Virus record (IMG/VR): IMGVR_UViG_2778261139_000004
Location: 1 to 39,211 of that record
DNA from: a virus
Taxonomy: Duplodnaviria > Heunggongvirae > Uroviricota > Caudoviricetes
DNA: 39,211 bases
Strand: one strand, 5' to 3'
In this document: positions 5,753 to 14,384 of the stretch, piece by piece
Layout of the letters: every line of letters starts with the position of its first letter
Numbering within the stretch: the stretch's first letter is position 1
Program-made: the position numbers and the translations under genes
Notes under the pieces: model-generated
Seen by the model: only the letters and a program-made list of their open reading frames with translations
Databases searched by the model: none
What the model was told of the DNA's origin: nothing

Positions 5753-6606
5753 GCACCATCCTGAAATGGGCGGGTAATAAAACCGCCATTATGTCCGAAC
5801 TGAAAAAACATCTTCCTGCTGGCCCGCGACTGGTTGAACCTTTCGCGGGTTCTTGTGCTGTGATGATGGCGACGGATTACCCCAGCTATCTGGTTGCGGA
5901 TATTAATCCTGATTTAATCAACCTCTATAAAAAGGTTGCTGCTGATTGTGAGGCGTTTATATCTCGCGCCAGAGTTTTATTTGAGGAAGCAAACAGGGAA
6001 GTGGCTTATTACAACATAAGGCAGGAGTTTAATTACTCCACTGAAATTACTGATTTCATGAAAGCAGTATATTTCCTGTATCTCAATCGTCACGGTTACC
6101 GTGGGTTATGTCGCTATAACAAAAGCGGGTATTTCAACATTCCCTACGGTAATTATAAAAATCCGTATTTCCCTGAAAAAGAAATTCGCGCTTTTGCAGA
6201 AAAAGCCCAGCGAGCAACGTTTATCTGCGCCAGCTTTGATGAAACGCTGGCGATGTTGAAGGCGGGGGATGTGGTGTATTGCGATCCGCCTTATGACGGT
6301 ACGTTTTCCGGCTATCACGCTGACGGCTTTACTGAAGATGACCAGTATCACCTGGCATCCGTTCTTGAACATCGGTCATCAGAAGGACATCCGGTCATTG
6401 TTTCTAACAGTGACACATCCCTGATCCGTTCGCTGTATCGCAATTTTACTCACCACTATATCAAGGTAAAACGCAGCATCGGCGTAGCAGCTGGTGAGAG
6501 TAAATCAGCAACAGAAATCATTGCTGTTTCCGGGCCGCGCTGCTGGGTGGGATTTGATTATTCGCGTGGCGTGGATAGTTCTGCCGTGTACGGAGTACGT
6601 GCATGA
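5749..6606 (+). CDS. dam: DNA adenine methyltransferase (Dam-like, N6-adenine)
   Basis: N-terminal LKWAGNK and FAGS motifs and the catalytic DPPY motif (VYCDPPYDG). ATGA start/stop overlap with the upstream gene. Confidence 0.85.
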
Positions 6607-9017
6607 GCCATGCCGATATGAGCAACTGCTGCGGCTTTAAAGAGGCTGCCGCATCGTTCTCATGGAACAGCCCGAAAAAGGCCATTAACCCTTATCTGGA
6701 CCCGGCGGAAGTTGCGCCGGTTTCTGCGCTTTCAAACCTGATCACTCTGTACGCTGCCGATAACGAGCAGGAACAACTGCGCCGCGAGGCACTGAGTGAT
6801 CAGGTCTGGGAGCGTTATTTCTTTAATGAATCCCGTGATCCTGTCCAACGCGAAATAGAACAGGATAAGCTCATTAGCCGGGCAAAGTTGGCGCATGAGC
6901 AGCAGCGTTTTAACCCGGACATGGTCATTCTGGCAGACGTCAGCGTCCAGCCCTCCCATATCAGCAAGCCGCTGATGCAACGTATTGAATACTTCAGCAG
7001 CCTGGGCAGGCCAAAGGCTTATTCCCGCTATTTACGTGAGACGATTAAGCCATGTCTGGAACGACTGGAGCATGTACGCGACAGCCAGCTATCTGCATCT
7101 TTTCGTTTTATGGCAAGCCATGTAGGGCTGGACGGCCTGCTGATTCTGCCTGAAATGAGTCAGGATCAGGTGAAACGCCTGTCTACCCTTGTCGCTGCGC
7201 ATATGAGCATGTGCCTTGATGCAGCTTGTGGTGATTTGTATGCCACCGATGACGTTAAGCCAGAAGAAATCCGCAAGACATGGGAAAAGGTGGCAGCGGA
7301 AACCCTGCGTCTGGATGTCATCCCGCCTGCGTTTGAGCAACTCCGTCGGAAAAGAAACCGCCGTAAACCCGTGCCCTATGAACTCATTCCGGGTTCGCTG
7401 GCGCGTATGTTGTGCGCCGACTGGTGGTACCGGAAATTATGGAAAATGCGTTGCGAATGGCGGGAAGAGCAGTTGCGTGCTGTCTGCCTGGTCAGCAAAA
7501 AAGCATCTCCCTATGTCAGCTATGAAGCCGTGATGCATAAACGTGAGCAGCGCCGCAAGTCACTGGAGTTTTTCCGTTCTCATGAACTGGTGAACGAAGA
7601 GGGCGACACGCTGGATATGGAAGACGTGGTAAACGCCAGCAGCAGCAACCCGGCGCACCGCCGCAATGAGATGATGGCCTGTGTTAAAGGTCTGGAGCTT
7701 ATCGCGGAAATGCGCGGTGACTGCGCCGTTTTCTACACCATTACCTGTCCGTCACGTTTCCATTCCACGCTCAATAACGGCAGACCAAACCCAACCTGGA
7801 CAAATGCGACGGTAAGACAAAGCAGCGATTATCTGGTCGGCATGTTTGCTGCATTTCGTAAGGCGATGCACAAAGCCGGGTTGCGCTGGTATGGCGTGCG
7901 GGTGGCTGAGCCGCATCATGACGGTACAGTTCACTGGCACCTGTTGTGTTTCATGCGCAAAAAAGACCGCCGCGCCATTACTGCATTGTTGCGTAAGTTT
8001 GCCATCCGTGAAGACCGCGAGGAACTGGGTAATAACACTGGTCCACGCTTTAAATCTGAGCTGATAAACCCGCGCAAAGGAACGCCGACAAGCTACATCG
8101 CGAAATACATCAGTAAGAACATTGACGGGCGTGGTCTGGCTGGCGAGATCAGCAAGGAAACGGGTAAATCCCTGCGTGATAACGCTGAATACGTTAATGC
8201 CTGGGCGTCTCTGCATCGTGTTCAGCAATTCCGCTTCTTTGGCATTCCGGGGCGTCAGGCTTACCGTGAACTGCGATTGCTGGCTGGTCAGGCGGCAAGG
8301 CAACAGGGCGACAAAAAAGCAGGTGCGCCGGTACTGGATAACCCGCGCCTTGATGCCATCCTGGCTGCTGCTGATGCTGGTTGTTTTGCCACCTACATCA
8401 TGAAGCAGGGCGGCGTACTGGTTCCCCGCAAATATCACCTCATCAGAACCGCTTATGAAATTAACGAAGAGCCGACCGCCTATGGCGATCACGGCATTCG
8501 TATTTATGGCATCTGGTCACCCATTGCAGAGGGCAAGATCTGCACTCATGCCGTGAAGTGGAAAATGGTTCGTAAGGCCGTTGACGTTCAGGAGGCGGCA
8601 GCCGACCAGGGCGCTTGCGCCCCTTGGACTCGTGGCAATAACTGTCCCCTTGCTGAAAATTTGAACCAGCAGGAGAAAGATAAATCAGCTGATGGGGACA
8701 CCAGAACGGACATTACCCGCATGGATGACAAGGAGTTGCACGATTATCTGCACAGTATGAGCAAAAAAGAGCGCCGGGAACTGGCTGCAAGGTTACGCCT
8801 GGTTAAGCCGAAACGGCGTAAAGACTACAAACAGCGAATTACAGATCATCAGCGACAGCAGCTCGTCTATGAACTGAAGTCCAGAGGATTTGATGGCAGC
8901 GAGAAAGAGGTCGATTTACTCCTTCGCGGTGGCAGTATTCCGTCAGGAGCAGGCCTGCGTATCTTCTATCGGAACCAGCGTTTGCAGGAAGATGATAAGT
9001 GGCGGGATCTGTATTAA
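6603..9017 (+). CDS. A: Replication initiation endonuclease (P2 gpA family, rolling-circle initiator)
   Basis: 804-aa ORF containing the conserved YIAKYISK active-site tyrosine region; ATGA overlap with dam. Confidence 0.85.
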
Positions 9018-9168: not shown

Positions 9169-9357
9169 ATGCAGGACTATTTTTTGGAGTCTTTGAAGCT
9201 CCAGCGCATTGATTTTTTTCTTAAGCTTGTAGCGGCTAGTGAGTGTAGTGATGAAGAGAAGGGGCTGGCTTTGCAGTGGGTTTCTGAACTAACAGATGAA
9301 CTCATGGCAAAAATCAGAACCCACGAATACAACCGCTCAATGGATGTCATCAGCTGA
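9169..9357 (+). CDS. Small hypothetical protein, possible N-terminal part of a Tum-like SOS antirepressor
   Basis: 62-aa ORF with AGGAGGA upstream of ATG 9169; directly downstream of the LexA box and upstream of the dinI-like gene. Confidence 0.45.
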   Translation: MQDYFLESLKLQRIDFFLKLVAASECSDEEKGLALQWVSELTDELMAKIRTHEYNRSMDVIS

Positions 9358-9367
9358 GGTGACTTTT

Positions 9368-9601
9368 ATGCGCATTGAAATAATGATCGATAAAGAGCAG
9401 AAGATTAGCCAGTCTACCCTGGACGCCCTTGAATCCGAGCTTTACCGCAATCTGCGCCCCCTGTATCCCAAAACGGTAATTCGTATCCGTAAAGGTAGCT
9501 CTAACGGTGTGGAACTGACTGGACTGCAACTGGACGAAGAAAGGAAGCAAGTGATGAAAATTATGCAGAAGGTGTGGGAAGACGACAGCTGGCTGCATTA
9601 A
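9368..9601 (+). CDS. dinI: DinI-like protein
   Basis: 77 aa, MRIEIMIDKEQ ... VWEDDSWLH; resembles the DinI family in length and pattern (MRIEV ... start, acidic C-terminus with W). Confidence 0.7.
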   Translation: MRIEIMIDKEQKISQSTLDALESELYRNLRPLYPKTVIRIRKGSSNGVELTGLQLDEERKQVMKIMQKVWEDDSWLH

Positions 9602-9736
9602 GAAACGTTGCTGGCGTCTGAACTTGTTTCTGGCGTCAGCAAGGTTTAACAACGAGCCCTTGTGAGGCGTTAGCTCTGTAGTGCATGTCTATGCCGCATG
9701 AGATCGCATGATCGTTTGAGGATCGTTTTTGCTAAG

Positions 9737-9760
9737 GCCCGCCAGAACTGGCGGGCTTTT
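9737..9760 (+). terminator. Rho-independent terminator ending the early operon
   Basis: GCCCGCCAG-aac-CTGGCGGGC stem-loop followed by TTTT. Confidence 0.6.
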
Positions 9761-9807
9761 GCGTAGATCATGCAGGTGCATGAAAACCACTACATAAAGC
9801 GGGCAGG

Positions 9808-9826
9808 CGTGGCGGGGATACGAGCG
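9808..9826. other. cos-like motif resembling the P2/186 cohesive-end core
   Basis: GGCGTGGCGGGGATACGAG; the first 13 nt match my recollection of the 186 cohesive end (GGCGTGGCGGGGAAAGCAT). Recollection only, not verified. Confidence 0.3.
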
Positions 9827-9832
9827 CGCGCC

Positions 9833-9861
9833 TTGCCTTATATCTATTTGTTCATTAAAAT
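9833..9861 (+). promoter_or_regulatory. Putative sigma70 promoter for the retron ncRNA/RT operon
   Basis: TTGCCT (9833-9838), 17-bp spacer, TAAAAT (9856-9861). Confidence 0.3.
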
Positions 9862-10075
9862 CATTATGCTCTTTAGTGTAGGAACATTGGTTCCAGCCGG
9901 GTGATTAGCCAGGCTTAAATTTATTGTCCGGTTTAGGGTTGCGAAAGACACAGATTTCTCCTTCGCATCCCTGCCCGGGGCAGATATGCGAAGGAGAAAT
10001 CTGTGTCTTTCGCTGTCTTTAGTGAAGAGTCAAAGCGCTATGTAAAGTTGCATAGCGCTTTGGTTTTAAGAGGGG
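9862..10075 (+). ncRNA. Candidate retron msr-msd non-coding RNA region; boundaries approximate
   Basis: Structured non-coding DNA directly upstream of a retron-type RT: palindrome GGAAC-attg-GTTCC (9881-9894), perfect 28-bp inverted repeat (9941-10013) and a perfect 12-bp hairpin (10031-10062). a1/a2 repeats not confidently identified. Confidence 0.4.
9941..10013. repeat. Perfect 28-bp inverted repeat with a 17-nt partly palindromic spacer (candidate msd stem-loop)
   Basis: GCGAAAGACACAGATTTCTCCTTCGCAT (9941-9968) and its exact reverse complement (9986-10013); spacer CCCTGCCCGGGGCAGAT. Confidence 0.9.
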
Positions 10076-10079
10076 TTAT

Positions 10080-11015
10080 ATGCAACTAACTTCTAAAATT
10101 ATCAGTAAGTTTAATTATAATAGATTAGCTTTCCAATTACTTTTAAATGAGGCCCCCAAAAAATATAAAGTTTATTATATTCCTAAACGTGGCGCAGGTT
10201 TTCGGGTGATAGCTCAGCCGACAAAGGAACTAAAAAACGTACAGAGATTTATAGTATCTTTGCTACAGCCAAAGCTGCCTGTTCATCATAAGGCAATGGC
10301 ATATGAATATAAAAAAAGTATTAAAGATAATGCATTGTTGCATAAAGATAATAATTATATTCTTAAAATGGATTTTCAGAACTTCTTTAACAAAATTAAA
10401 CCTGATATATTTTTCTCGAAACTTGAGAACACAGGGCTGAAATTGGATTCATTTGATGAGAATACCCTACGTAATTTGCTTTTTTGGCGTCCGGGAAAAA
10501 AGAGAAGTACAACGTTGATATTAAGTGTAGGGGCGCCAAGCTCACCATTTATTAGTAATTTTGTTATGTATGACTTTGACAAGAGTCTTGATGATTGGTG
10601 CCGTAACAATGGTATCACTTATTCAAGGTATGCAGATGATATAACTTTTTCAACTAATATTAAGGATATATTGTGCAGGGTTCCTAAGGTGGTAAAAAAA
10701 ATGTTGTCGCTCCATGTTCCCGGTCTATCAATCAATGAATCTAAAACAATTTTTACATCGATGGCTCATAATCGGCACGTGACTGGTGTAACACTTACAC
10801 CTCAGGGCAATTTATCAATTGGTCGCGATCGTAAAAGGATGCTGTTTGCAAAGATTCATAAATATTCTTTGGGACTCTTATCTTCCGAAGAAATAAATAA
10901 AACCAAAGGGATGATTGCGTTTGCAAATTATTTGGAGGGTGATTTTTTATTAAGGTTACAAAAAAAATATGGTTGTGAGTTAATAACTAAGTTCCTGATG
11001 GAAGGAAACAAATAA
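10080..11015 (+). CDS. Retron-type reverse transcriptase
   Basis: 311 aa with the RT active-site motif YADD (SRYADDITFS), an upstream GAPSSP motif, and the retron-typical VTG motif (NRHVTGV) downstream. AT-rich cargo. Confidence 0.85.
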   Translation: MQLTSKIISKFNYNRLAFQLLLNEAPKKYKVYYIPKRGAGFRVIAQPTKELKNVQRFIVSLLQPKLPVHHKAMAYEYKKSIKDNALLHKDNNYILKMDFQNFFNKIKPDIFFSKLENTGLKLDSFDENTLRNLLFWRPGKKRSTTLILSVGAPSSPFISNFVMYDFDKSLDDWCRNNGITYSRYADDITFSTNIKDILCRVPKVVKKMLSLHVPGLSINESKTIFTSMAHNRHVTGVTLTPQGNLSIGRDRKRMLFAKIHKYSLGLLSSEEINKTKGMIAFANYLEGDFLLRLQKKYGCELITKFLMEGNK

Positions 11016-12649
11016 TGATAAATAAAATGAATTTAGAGACTTGCTATGTTGATTTTTTAGAGTTGGAATCACATGTGATAAACGAGGATTATTTGAAGGA
11101 GTCTGTTGAGCTTCAAAAGCTAATATCTACTTTAAATGAGAGTAAGTTTCATTTAAATAAAATAGGTATACATGATTTTAAACGGATAAGAGAACTACAG
11201 ATTTCTTTAGAAGATGATTTGACTGTTTTTGTCGGGGATAACGGATTCGGTAAAAGCACTATTTTGGATGCAATAGCAATTGTTTTGAGTTGGTTGAGAT
11301 CAAATATTGAAAAGGAGAGTAAGCCTGGTACTTATATTAAAAGCCATGAAGTTAATAACTCTGTTGATGTTGAGTATGCATCAATTGATGCAAATATAAA
11401 ACTCAAGGACTTTAATACCAGTATTTTGATTACTAAAGCGAAAGAGGGGGCATATTATTCTAGAAATAATGAATTGTTGGAGGTAAAAAAACTTGCAAGT
11501 ATTTATAGACTTGTGAATAAATATGTTGATAATGCAAGCTTGCCTTTGATGGCATATTATTCTATTGCGCGTTCTTATATAGGCGGCGGGGTTGATAGGA
11601 AAAGAAAAAATGCTAAAACTAAAACTGTATGGTCAAAATTCGATGTGTATGATGAAATCGAGTTTGACAGAAATGATTTTACCGATTTTTTTCAATGGCT
11701 TGTATTTCTTCATAACAGAGCTTCACAAGAGAAATTGAGTGAGTCACAAACGACAATCAATGCGTTATTTTCAGATATTCAGAGTTTGAAAGCAACATTA
11801 ACTCAACTATCTGCGATTGATAATATTGATTCAACAGTTATAAAAGGTTTAGAGCTTTCGCTTAAAGAAAAATTGAACTACATGAAATCTCTGCAATCAG
11901 GAGAACATAAGTTTAATAATGCAGTATCACTTTATGATAGTGTTATAAATACCATTCTAAAGTTCTTGCCTGAATTTCAGTGGATTAAGCTTGTTTATGG
12001 TGATGATGATTATAAGATTATCCTTAAAAAAGGAGAGGTTGAATTAGATATTCAACAGTTGTCTCAAGGTGAGAAAACTATATTTACTTTAGTTGGTGAT
12101 TTGGCTCGACGTTTAATTTTACTTAATCCAAATTTATCTAATCCTCTATTGGGATATGGGATTGTTTTAATTGATGAAATTGATTTGCATTTGCATCCGC
12201 AATGGCAACAGACAATTATTGAGCGTTTGACATCTACATTCCCAAATGTTCAATTTGTAATTACTACCCATAGCCCACAGGTTTTATCCACTGTTAGCTC
12301 TCGTTCAGTGCGTATTCTACAGGAAGTGGAAGTAGATGGTGTTAATGATTTGATAGTGTCTCACCCCGACTATCAAATAAAAGGTGTTAGTAATCAGGAT
12401 GCACTTTTATATGGAATGAGAACTGATCCTATACCCTCTACTAAAGAAAATGGTTGGCTTGAAGAATATAAAAAATTGGTTGAGCTTAATCGTTATAGCA
12501 GTGACGAGGCTCTTTTGTTAAGAGAAAAAGTTATTAAACATTTCGGATTAGACCATCCTTTAGTTCAAGAGTGTGATGATCTTATATCTGTTTTGGAGTT
12601 CAAAAATAAGATAAATCAGCACTTTTCTGGAAGTAAGGATGTAAAATGA
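11015..12649 (+). CDS. PtuA-like ABC/AAA-type ATPase (Septu-type effector partner of the RT)
   Basis: Walker A GDNGFGKST, Walker B VLIDEIDLHLHP, TTHSP motif. Start overlaps the RT stop. Confidence 0.8.
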   Translation: MINKMNLETCYVDFLELESHVINEDYLKESVELQKLISTLNESKFHLNKIGIHDFKRIRELQISLEDDLTVFVGDNGFGKSTILDAIAIVLSWLRSNIEKESKPGTYIKSHEVNNSVDVEYASIDANIKLKDFNTSILITKAKEGAYYSRNNELLEVKKLASIYRLVNKYVDNASLPLMAYYSIARSYIGGGVDRKRKNAKTKTVWSKFDVYDEIEFDRNDFTDFFQWLVFLHNRASQEKLSESQTTINALFSDIQSLKATLTQLSAIDNIDSTVIKGLELSLKEKLNYMKSLQSGEHKFNNAVSLYDSVINTILKFLPEFQWIKLVYGDDDYKIILKKGEVELDIQQLSQGEKTIFTLVGDLARRLILLNPNLSNPLLGYGIVLIDEIDLHLHPQWQQTIIERLTSTFPNVQFVITTHSPQVLSTVSSRSVRILQEVEVDGVNDLIVSHPDYQIKGVSNQDALLYGMRTDPIPSTKENGWLEEYKKLVELNRYSSDEALLLREKVIKHFGLDHPLVQECDDLISVLEFKNKINQHFSGSKDVK

Positions 12650-13352: not shown

Positions 13353-14384
13353 TTAATCTATATTATATTCTGAGAAATTGATAATATGCATCCCTATCCA
13401 CTGATTAAATTCATGGATTTTTTTTTGTAGAGGTACTAATTCATTTGTCACAAAAACCTTACTAGCTTTCTCCACATCCCCAAACCCCCCAACATTATTC
13501 GGCATAATCCCCATCATTTGCGGCGGCACACGGTGTGCCGCCATCATGTCGTCCCGGCTCACGTTCTTGATATTCAGAAATTCATCCTTCGCTGCAACTT
13601 CTGACAACGGGATGATCTGAAGCCCGTCCTTTTTGCCGTTAGGCGAGTACATAAACAAGTTACGGAAGTTGCCCGGTCCTTTGGCGCTTTTCATCGCGTT
13701 GCGGAGGTTGTTCACATCCTCCTGGTTCTGCGCGGCGTCAGTCATATACATGATGAAGCCTGCATGACTGCCGTTAATGTAATACTTGCGGCGGAACAGC
13801 GTGGCGGACTCGTTGAGCAGGGCTGACGGAATGGCAGAAAGATAACCGGGCAGGCCGTAGATCTCCTGGTTGATGTCCGGTTCCATCAGATGAAAAATGC
13901 TGCCTTTCGCGAACTGATACGGCTGGGTTGTCATACCGTATTGCACAAACCAGTAGGTATCCAGGTCTAACCCGCGTCGGGTGTATTTTGCCAGCGCAGG
14001 CTCAAGGGCGATAACTTCACCGAATCGGTTCGTGCGTTTCTCCAGGTAGGCGTTACCAAATACCAGATAGTCCAGCACAAAACGCGAAAAAGCCTGCTGG
14101 CTGAGAAGCGGGTGAGGGATGTAGGTGCTGGTCAGAATGTTGCATTTCACTGCAATTGGTGAACTGTGATGCACGGCAGCGCGGAAGGTGCGCGCCAGTC
14201 CGTCAAAGCTGACGGGAGGCTCATACCAGCGATCTGTCTGTACGCATTCCACATAGTCCAGCAGTTCGCGGCGGTCAAGTACTGGAATGGGATCACCGAA
14301 GCTGAATGCTTCGGCTGAAGCTTGGCTTTTATGCTGGATCTGGTTCGTCGCCGCAGCGCGTTTTTTTTTACTCTTTCCCATCAA
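13353..14384 (-). CDS. Q: Portal protein (P2 gpQ-like)
   Basis: 343 aa, syntenic with P2 Q immediately before the terminase ATPase gene; overlaps the P stop by 4 nt. Its 3' end is AT-rich. Confidence 0.85.
   Translation of the reverse strand: MMGKSKKKRAAATNQIQHKSQASAEAFSFGDPIPVLDRRELLDYVECVQTDRWYEPPVSFDGLARTFRAAVHHSSPIAVKCNILTSTYIPHPLLSQQAFSRFVLDYLVFGNAYLEKRTNRFGEVIALEPALAKYTRRGLDLDTYWFVQYGMTTQPYQFAKGSIFHLMEPDINQEIYGLPGYLSAIPSALLNESATLFRRKYYINGSHAGFIMYMTDAAQNQEDVNNLRNAMKSAKGPGNFRNLFMYSPNGKKDGLQIIPLSEVAAKDEFLNIKNVSRDDMMAAHRVPPQMMGIMPNNVGGFGDVEKASKVFVTNELVPLQKKIHEFNQWIGMHIINFSEYNID

Follow-up and report, generated by a model that had tools for sequence, protein, structure and literature searches.

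The perfect 28-bp inverted repeat at positions 9941-10013 of the window (the whole stretch of 39,211 nucleotides analysed here, to which all coordinates refer) is almost certainly the msd stem of a type I-A retron ncRNA that is carried as cargo by a P2-like prophage. The sequence-only reading had put this hairpin forward as the msd template stem-loop, and the assignment is supported by a full-length msr alignment directly 5' of it, by covarying a1/a2 repeats, by the identity of the neighbouring reverse transcriptase (RT) to chain E of PDB entry 9N69 and by a published msDNA of ~90 nt, while no evidence against it was found in this analysis. The feature is already known, as structure and mechanism have been published for an identical ncRNA and RT, those of the retron of E. 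coli FORC_082 (George et al., Nat Commun 2025;16:8459, PMC12475279), a system that a second group refers to as Retron-FORC (Eco7 structure paper). Raw sequence alone thus sufficed to locate the DNA that serves an anti-phage retron as sensor and scaffold, but its biology is not new: the msd hairpin itself calls for no novel reading, and the role of a conserved hairpin after a2 is the sole loose end.

[quoted passage not shown] A stem of this length had been called unusual, and it is: when the entire 39,211 bases were scanned for perfect stems with loops of up to 60 nt, no other perfect hairpin came near it in length, the runners-up reaching 12 bp, and the longest perfect hairpins in 20 mononucleotide shuffles of the window measured 9-11 bp. 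The RNA from 9868 to 10070 folds at -108.2 kcal/mol (z = -11.9) and the predicted cDNA (the reverse complement of 9933-10022), folded as DNA, at -41.1 kcal/mol (z = -12.7), with none of 200 shuffles doing as well in either case and with the same 28-bp stem forming in RNA and in DNA. The inverted repeat is real and lies far beyond chance. Its spacer, initially described as palindromic, does span 17 nt and does contain a self-complementary part, but the motif in question (CTGCCCGGGGCAG) is an imperfect rather than an exact palindrome, in which CTGCC and GGCAG pair over 5 bp with a 3-nt loop between them when folded as RNA, and the DNA fold gives 6 bp. This tip corresponds to the variable, poorly ordered "tip of the harpoon" of the published structure. 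The hairpin does not have the make-up of an intrinsic terminator (a G+C-rich stem with a T-run), as the stem is followed by TGTCTTTAG, no T-run lies 3' of it (10014-10021 reads TGTCTTTA) and a terminator scan made no call there.

The hairpin lies 67 nt upstream of the RT reading frame. The RT is identical at 311 of 311 residues to chain E of PDB entries 9N69, 9N6B and 9N6C and also to the FORC_082 gene product; the PtuA-type ATPase matches chain A of 9N69 over its full length (1189.7 bits), with one substitution (E156 in the window versus G156 in FORC_082), and the PtuB HNH nuclease matches chain F over its full length (525.8 bits) and is identical to FORC_082 PtuB. Since genes for a PtuA-type ATPase and a PtuB-type HNH protein follow directly 3' of the RT gene, the system is assigned to the type I-A retrons. 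Four hallmarks of a retron are present: an adjacent RT of the retron clade, an msr with its branching G, a1/a2 repeats and a long and stable msd stem (Table 1).

Table 1. Features of the retron locus in the window
Feature	Position	Strand	Description and basis
Candidate sigma-70 promoter of the retron ncRNA/operon	9833-9861	+	TTGCCT, 17-nt spacer, TAAAAT; 9/12 consensus matches
a1 inverted repeat GCUCUUUA	9868-9875	+	5' half of the a1:a2 stem (SL-3 of George et al.); MFE fold, covariation
Branching (priming) guanosine, 2'-OH primes reverse transcription	9876	+	Invariant UUUAG context, msr alignment, published G8
msr stem-loop 1	9881-9894	+	GGAAC-AUUG-GUUCC; MFE fold
msr stem-loop 2, conserved RT-thumb "handle"	9895-9915	+	AGCC.GGU-GAUUA-GCC.GGCU; MFE fold
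Conserved single-stranded linker UAAAUUUAUUG...	9916-9940	+	Alignment of relatives; published clamp/termination descriptions
msd stem, left arm	9941-9968	+	28 nt; sequence, repeat finder, RNA and DNA folds, window scan
msd hairpin tip CCCTGCCCGGGGCAGAT	9969-9985	+	17-nt spacer; apical mini-stem of 5-6 bp in folds; variable in alignment
msd stem, right arm	9986-10013	+	28 nt; exact reverse complement of 9941-9968; same basis as left arm
Template 3' end UGUCUUUA and opposing G (10022)	10014-10022	+	Conserved motif; concept from the Eco7 structure
a2 inverted repeat UGAAGAGU	10023-10030	+	Partner of a1; MFE fold, covariation
Second hairpin	10031-10062	+	14 bp (12 perfect, one G-U, one A-U), 4-nt loop; z = -6.0; then GGUUUUAAG
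Retron reverse transcriptase, 311 aa	10080-11015	+	Pfam RVT_1 E = 3.7e-30; PADLOC RT_I-A 434.6 bits
PtuA-type SMC/ABC-family ATPase, 544 aa	11015-12649	+	Pfam AAA_15 and SMC_N; PADLOC PtuA 642.5 bits, ATPase_I-A 504.3 bits
PtuB HNH nuclease effector, 227 aa	12646-13329	+	PADLOC PtuB 389.2 bits, HNH_I-A 191.5 bits

Anatomy of the ncRNA

Structure prediction for this region, which the sequence-only reading had advised, resolves 9868-10070 into an a1:a2 stem, two msr stem-loops, the msd stem and a 3' hairpin. No convincing a1/a2 repeats had been recognised at the outset and the ncRNA boundaries had been left open, but with G-U pairs allowed, as had also been advised, the RNA fold pairs 9868-9875 with 10023-10030 in a stem that brackets both msr and msd and that is hard to see by eye because it comprises only 8 bp, two of which are G-U. 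The UUUAG directly 3' of a1 is invariant in all 11 aligned loci (see below) and recurs in the Rfam msr alignment. Position 9876 is the priming guanosine that the main text of George et al. numbers G8 and describes as preceded by A7 (PMC12475279), if nucleotide 1 of the RNA is 9869, and this numbering fits the position of the candidate promoter, a consensus match only, by which transcription would start at ~9868/9869. In the fold, this branching G lies opposite G10022, in keeping with the "opposing G" of the Eco7 structure paper, beside which DNA synthesis starts; by analogy, the first templated base would be 10021. A CUGUCUUUAG-like motif ahead of a2 is conserved in the alignment, and the only direct repeat that the repeat finder reported nearby (TCTTTAGTG) is accounted for by the sequence around the branching G, which matches that around the opposing G. 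Between the msr stem-loops and the msd stem, the segment AAUUUAUUG is nearly invariant in the 11 loci, and the published "clamp" and the termination sequence probably lie within the linker to which it belongs.

Two Rfam families cover the ncRNA. The msr family aligns over its full length (model 1-69/69) at 9868-9932 with 45.9 bits (E = 2.2e-6; gathering score of 52 not reached), and RF02058, "Gammaproteobacterial sRNA STnc400", does so (1-125/125) at 9934-10071 with 73 bits (E = 1.3e-13; gathering score of 80 not reached), a match that spans the msd part and the second hairpin. With both scores below the gathering thresholds, neither half of the ncRNA in the window would be picked up by standard Rfam annotation. 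Taken at its name, the second match would speak for a stand-alone regulatory sRNA of the STnc400 type, acting by base pairing or Hfq binding and with no reverse-transcription template, and an STnc400 transcript has indeed been seen in Salmonella by RNA-seq and on Northern blots. STnc400 was, however, defined from these transcripts between STM3844 and STM3845, and STM3845/STM3846 are the genes of the St-85 retron; as STnc400 maps directly upstream of them, RF02058 is itself a retron msd region under an sRNA name, one that hides the retron nature of the msd half. Moreover, msDNA from the same retron is described in the main text of George et al. (PMC12475279), and the pattern of changes in the stem core points to selection on a DNA duplex (see next section). 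A small regulatory RNA in place of an msd is therefore very improbable.

Compensatory changes preserve the msd stem in type I-A relatives

Two further E. coli prophage retrons (L002 and L003) have ncRNAs that are 87% and 80% identical, and the changes in their stems are already compensatory. As candidates for Ec78 or Ec83 both were rejected, the FORC RT being the closest to each. A scan with the window RT, using one genome per species, yielded 12 further RT loci at 45-50% identity in Vibrio cholerae, Shewanella, Cellvibrio, Ketobacter, Methylococcaceae and others. An Rfam msr match above the gathering score lies just upstream of the RT gene in 10 of the 10 relatives with usable upstream sequence, and PtuA and/or PtuB are encoded downstream in all five loci tested. 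The layout is the same throughout, with a near-perfect stem of 19-33 bp and unrelated sequence placed between a conserved UUGCG(G/A)AA and UU(C/U)CGC; the exception, L015, has an msd of only 37 nt with an 8-bp stem, so that not every member of the group has a long stem.

We aligned the a1-to-a2 segments of 11 loci, leaving out L015 (for its 37-nt msd), L005 (whose ncRNA region equals that of L004) and L007 and L013 (upstream sequence unusable). RNAalifold predicted 45 pairs for these 11 ncRNAs, 28 of them with a compensatory change, and within the msd helix compensatory (double) changes were found at 25 of 30 pairs. In this alignment, whose sequences are related and from which the structure itself was taken, 95.2% of cells were paired, versus 74.0 ± 1.3% after shuffling (0 of 500 shuffles reached the observed value) and 44-47% with partners slid by 1-3 columns, and the covariation score was 0.613, versus 0.19 for shuffles and 0.08-0.14 for slid partners; the slid control, together with how many distinct pair types occur, makes a phylogenetic artefact unlikely. 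The a1:a2 stem (helix 1) was paired in 97.7% of cells and showed two pairs with changes on both sides, its versions among relatives including GCUCUUUA/UAAAGAGC, GCCC.../...GGGC and UCUC.../...GAGA, and the handle stem-loop (helix 2) was 100% paired in the 11 loci with one covarying pair.

The core of the msd helix has no single-sided (wobble-type) changes in any of the 11 loci. G-U pairs number 0-3 per msd region in the folds, and they are present at the stem base and in the a1:a2 stem, which exists as RNA only. A wobble-free core is expected if the stem must also pair in its DNA copy, where a G-U pair would turn into a C-A mismatch, and this pattern in the alignment points to selection on a DNA duplex.

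The hairpin is prophage cargo shared with E. coli FORC_082

The retron cassette is flanked by a P2-type gene A (6603-9017) and a DinI-like gene (9296-9601) on one side and by a portal gene on the minus strand (13353-14384) on the other. Within the P2-like prophage it occupies the gpA-gpQ cargo hotspot, a known carrier of retrons and other defence systems in such phages (PMC9122126), and has a GC content of ~32%, versus ~53% in the phage flanks. The hairpin is intergenic and lies near a region called cos-proximal in P2-like phages, as might befit a backbone element of the prophage (a terminator or a packaging- or replication-related structure) that is next to an RT gene by coincidence. Yet P2-like phages without an RT are similar to the window only from 9760 to ~9831-9845 and lack the hairpin, no phage record matches past ~9845, and the corresponding site in Fels-2 is occupied by a different, unrelated gene of 1.7 kb, so that the hairpin is cargo and not phage backbone. 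A hairpin kept in RT-less relatives is what the sequence-only reading had named as speaking against its own assignment, and these relatives show the opposite. In addition, the hairpin region is always found beside a retron RT in E. coli (three loci inspected), the stem covaries with type I-A RTs in non-prophage settings in Vibrio, Shewanella, Cellvibrio and Methylococcaceae, and neither a T-run nor a terminator call accompanies it. We thus give a backbone element practically no credence. The same holds for the view of the inverted repeat as the terminus or a relic of a small mobile element (MITE- or IS-like) and for a chance or assembly palindrome, because, although transposon ends and some assembly artefacts typically show long perfect inverted repeats, the identical sequence occurs in four independent complete E. 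coli genomes, compensatory changes preserve the stem in diverged relatives, and there is neither a transposase nor a target-site duplication, the TCTTTAGTG repeat being otherwise explained.

Across 331 nt around the msd stem, the window matches the chromosome of E. coli FORC_082 and three further complete genomes with 100% identity, and its region comprising promoter and ncRNA (9664-10462) shows no difference from FORC_082. Across the cassette there are five nucleotide differences, all in the coding part and only one of them non-synonymous (the E156/G156 exchange in PtuA). The surrounding prophage is 98.2% identical to that of FORC_082 over 10 kb, and the window therefore comes from a close relative of the FORC_082 prophage. 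An indel upstream distinguishes the window from L001. Judging from these sequences, the retron is presumably active in the window's own strain as well, a statement that we qualify because of the five cassette differences and the PtuA substitution among them.

The msDNA and its proposed mode of action

Reverse transcription would probably stop in the linker, within 9926-9933, as estimated by analogy with Eco7, by analogy with Ec86 and from a gel size of ~90 nt. In Eco7, the RT stops 50 nt after the branching G (Eco7 structure paper). Mapping on this basis puts the msDNA at ~89-96 nt, and the predicted DNA product is the reverse complement of ~9929-10021, TAAAGACAGCGAAAGACACAG...CGCAACCCTAAACCG; if its 5' end is trimmed as in Ec78/Ec83, it would be ~4 nt shorter. 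A length of 75-85 nt, as suggested from the sequence at first, is somewhat too short, since the purified 364-kDa complex of the FORC_082 retron contains an msDNA of ~90 nt on the published gel along with an RNA of ~40 nt (George et al., PMC12475279). The main text of that paper limits its coordinates to G8/A7, "~90 nt" and "12 unmodelled bases" and states no exact msDNA ends. The window coordinates of a1, the branching G, the opposing G, a2 and the stem can be used for mapping msDNA ends or for msd retargeting in retron-based editing.

Cryo-EM structures of the FORC_082 retron (PDB 9N69, 9N6B and 9N6C) and the accompanying main text (George et al., PMC12475279) describe a covariance model with "a long stem-loop" and a "harpoon" of msDNA that passes through two ATPase dimers and whose tip has 12 unmodelled bases. 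The msDNA scaffolds the RT and PtuA4-PtuB and forms the structural core of the complex, while truncation of the loop has no effect on defence. Co-expression of T3 exonuclease leads to degradation of the msDNA, T5 D15 being a trigger as well, and the HNH nuclease is then released and cleaves tRNA-Ser (PMC12475279, main text).

Transferred to the window, these data suggest a course of events in four steps. The transcript from ~9868/9869, a probable start, would fold such that a1 pairs with a2 and G9876 faces G10022, an arrangement for which fold and covariation are given above. The RT would then bind the msr stem-loops, prime on the 2'-OH of G9876 and copy the template leftwards, starting at 10021 and passing the entire hairpin, until it stops in the linker at about 9926-9933; this step draws on retron biochemistry and the published structure, with the stop site as estimated above. 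The resulting single-stranded DNA of ~90 nt would re-form the 28-bp perfect stem as DNA, making up the shaft of the harpoon, and two PtuA ATPase dimers would clamp the shaft and thereby keep the PtuB HNH nuclease inactive, as published for the same retron. Upon infection, expression of a phage flap nuclease (such as T3 exonuclease or T5 D15) would lead to degradation of the msDNA, the complex would disassemble and PtuB would cut tRNA-Ser and so arrest translation, again in line with the published mechanism.

A conserved hairpin follows a2

A second hairpin with a perfect 12-bp stem had been noted just before the RT start codon, and it is likewise real: the repeat finder and the window scan both recover 10031-10042/10051-10062 (z = -6.0). 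It begins at the base after a2 and ends ~17-18 nt before the RT start codon, leaving a Shine-Dalgarno-like AAGAGGGG at 10066-10073 unpaired on its 3' side. Of 12 type I-A loci, 11 have a stable hairpin in this position (z from -2.5 to -8.3; L006 is without one). The sequences of these hairpins are unrelated across loci, and this holds also for the three E. coli retrons, despite 80-87% identity between their msd regions. The GGTTTTAA that follows the hairpin in the window contains four T, whereas an intrinsic terminator would have at least five T within 8 nt, and the terminator scan made no call; clear U/T-runs follow the equivalent hairpins of L011, L014 and L015, and none follows those of L002 and L003.

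[quoted passage not shown] We suggest only tentatively, and with more doubt than conviction, that it is a dedicated, conserved module of type I-A/II-A1 ncRNAs rather than an incidental structure, and that it serves as a leaky terminator or 3'-end protector or as a ribosome insulator. As a leaky terminator or 3'-end protector, it would set the ratio of ncRNA to RT/effector mRNA; as an insulator, it would shield the 8-bp a1:a2 stem from ribosomes that load at the RT start. A limited literature search found no description of a native terminator or hairpin 3' of a2.

Comparison with known retrons

The type I-A retron of E. coli FORC_082 and that of the window are the same retron, with the same ncRNA, RT, PtuB, gene order and prophage site; the two differ by the five nucleotides in the coding part and by G156 of PtuA in FORC_082 where the window has E156.

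A locus of the Retron-Vch1 (Vc95) type in Vibrio cholerae ATCC 14035 (L012) is also of type I-A and encodes an RT that is 47% identical to that of the window. It shares the msr (78.6 bits), a near-perfect msd stem (30 bp in L012), the same a1/a2 sequence and a 3' hairpin. Unlike the window, it has an entirely different stem sequence and is chromosomal rather than located in a P2-like prophage, and its ATPase reading frame appears split in its assembly.

Type I-A and II-A1 retrons have been placed in one ncRNA family (IA1/IIA1) by Mestre et al. Retron-Sen2 (St-85) belongs to the same structural ncRNA family as the window retron and likewise has a long msd stem free of mismatches, followed by a 3' hairpin. 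It differs in its effector gene, STM3845, in place of PtuA/PtuB, and the window stays below the gathering score of the family named after its transcript (73 versus 80 bits).

A comparison with Ec78 and Ec83 had been recommended with the first description of the hairpin, and the window retron proved to be neither of them but a third type I-A retron, Retron-FORC. Retron-Eco7 (Ec78) and Retron-Eco4 (Ec83) were rejected as identities for it on RT scores of 288 and 269 bits, versus 698 bits for the FORC chain, and on unrelated msd sequences. Both share with the window the operon order ncRNA-RT-PtuA-PtuB and an ncRNA built from a1, a branching G, msr stem-loops, a long msd hairpin, an opposing G and a2, and both share with the FORC retron a PtuA tetramer that clamps the msDNA and the phage D15 nuclease as a trigger. 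The msDNA of Eco7 measures 77-78 nt and runs at ~80 nt on a gel, versus ~90 nt for that of FORC, and the reported target is tRNA-Tyr for Eco7 versus tRNA-Ser for FORC.

A hairpin adjoins a2 in most type I-A retron loci compared

Of 12 type I-A retron loci compared, 11 carry a stable hairpin (folding z -2.5 to -8.3) immediately 3' of a2, the repeat that pairs with a1 to close the retron ncRNA, and the sequences of these hairpins are unrelated between loci. Only some of the 11 are followed by a U-run. The hairpin may insulate the ncRNA, protect its 3' end or act as a leaky terminator; we found no description of it in the searchable literature.

Features in the window and in related retron loci (L002-L015)
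Feature	Locus	Coordinates	Remark
terminator-like hairpin	window	9731-9762	GCTAAGGCCCGCCAG / CTGGCGGGCTTTTGC; closes DinI-side phage genes
direct repeat	window	9870-9878 and 10016-10024	TCTTTAGTG
a2-adjoining hairpin	window	10031-10062	
a2-adjoining hairpin	L002	5273-5301	
a2-adjoining hairpin	L003	5277-5294	
a2-adjoining hairpin	L004	626-660	
a2-adjoining hairpin	L008	3871-3907	
a2-adjoining hairpin	L009	3898-3934	
a2-adjoining hairpin	L010	3937-3977	
a2-adjoining hairpin	L011	3265-3291	
a2-adjoining hairpin	L012	3917-3948	
a2-adjoining hairpin	L014	3948-3980	
a2-adjoining hairpin	L015	3943-3974	

Through the direct repeat, the branching G (9876) shares its UUUAGUG context with the opposing G (10022), and the motif preceding a2 is kept in relatives, though it is not needed for a1:a2 pairing. 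Elsewhere in the window, the P2-type replication gene A contains a perfect 12-bp inverted repeat with a 46-nt spacer (6736-6747 / 6794-6805), which ties for second-longest perfect hairpin of the window.

Phage similarity ends at the putative retron promoter

The 72-86 nt that follow the terminator-like hairpin (window 9760-9845) are 94-100% identical to P2-like phages that have no RT (Fels-2 and phages of Klebsiella and Yersinia). The left edge of the hotspot cargo is marked by the end of this similarity, which falls right at the -35 box of the putative retron promoter.

Divergent relatives

The locus of a Cellvibrionaceae MAG (L015, 3803-3925) has a normal msr and a1/a2, but its msd is minimal, measuring 37 nt and having a stem of only 8 bp. 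If this locus, whose contig terminates within the RT gene, is intact, not every member of this RT clade has a long msDNA shaft. In the Vc95-type retron of Vibrio cholerae ATCC 14035 (L012, 4916-6537), the ATPase frame 3' of the RT is split in this assembly into two ORFs, one of 265 aa and one of 203 aa, which could reflect a frameshift or a pseudogene.

Comparison with Rfam families and the FORC_082 cassette

Within window 9868-10071 the Rfam matches to msr (45.9 versus a gathering score of 52) and STnc400 (73 versus 80) both fall below threshold, and default annotation would therefore miss the retron ncRNA. In Salmonella, the 'STnc400 sRNA' (RF02058) lies between STM3844 and STM3845, adjoining the St-85 retron genes; thus, this family is really a retron msd region, filed under an sRNA name. 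Compared to the structurally characterised cassette of E. coli FORC_082, the sole protein difference is at PtuA residue 156 (codon at window 11480-11482), which is E156 in the window versus G156 in FORC_082. Four further nucleotide changes are synonymous: those at 10463 and 10721, and two of the three at 11481, 11587 and 12130.
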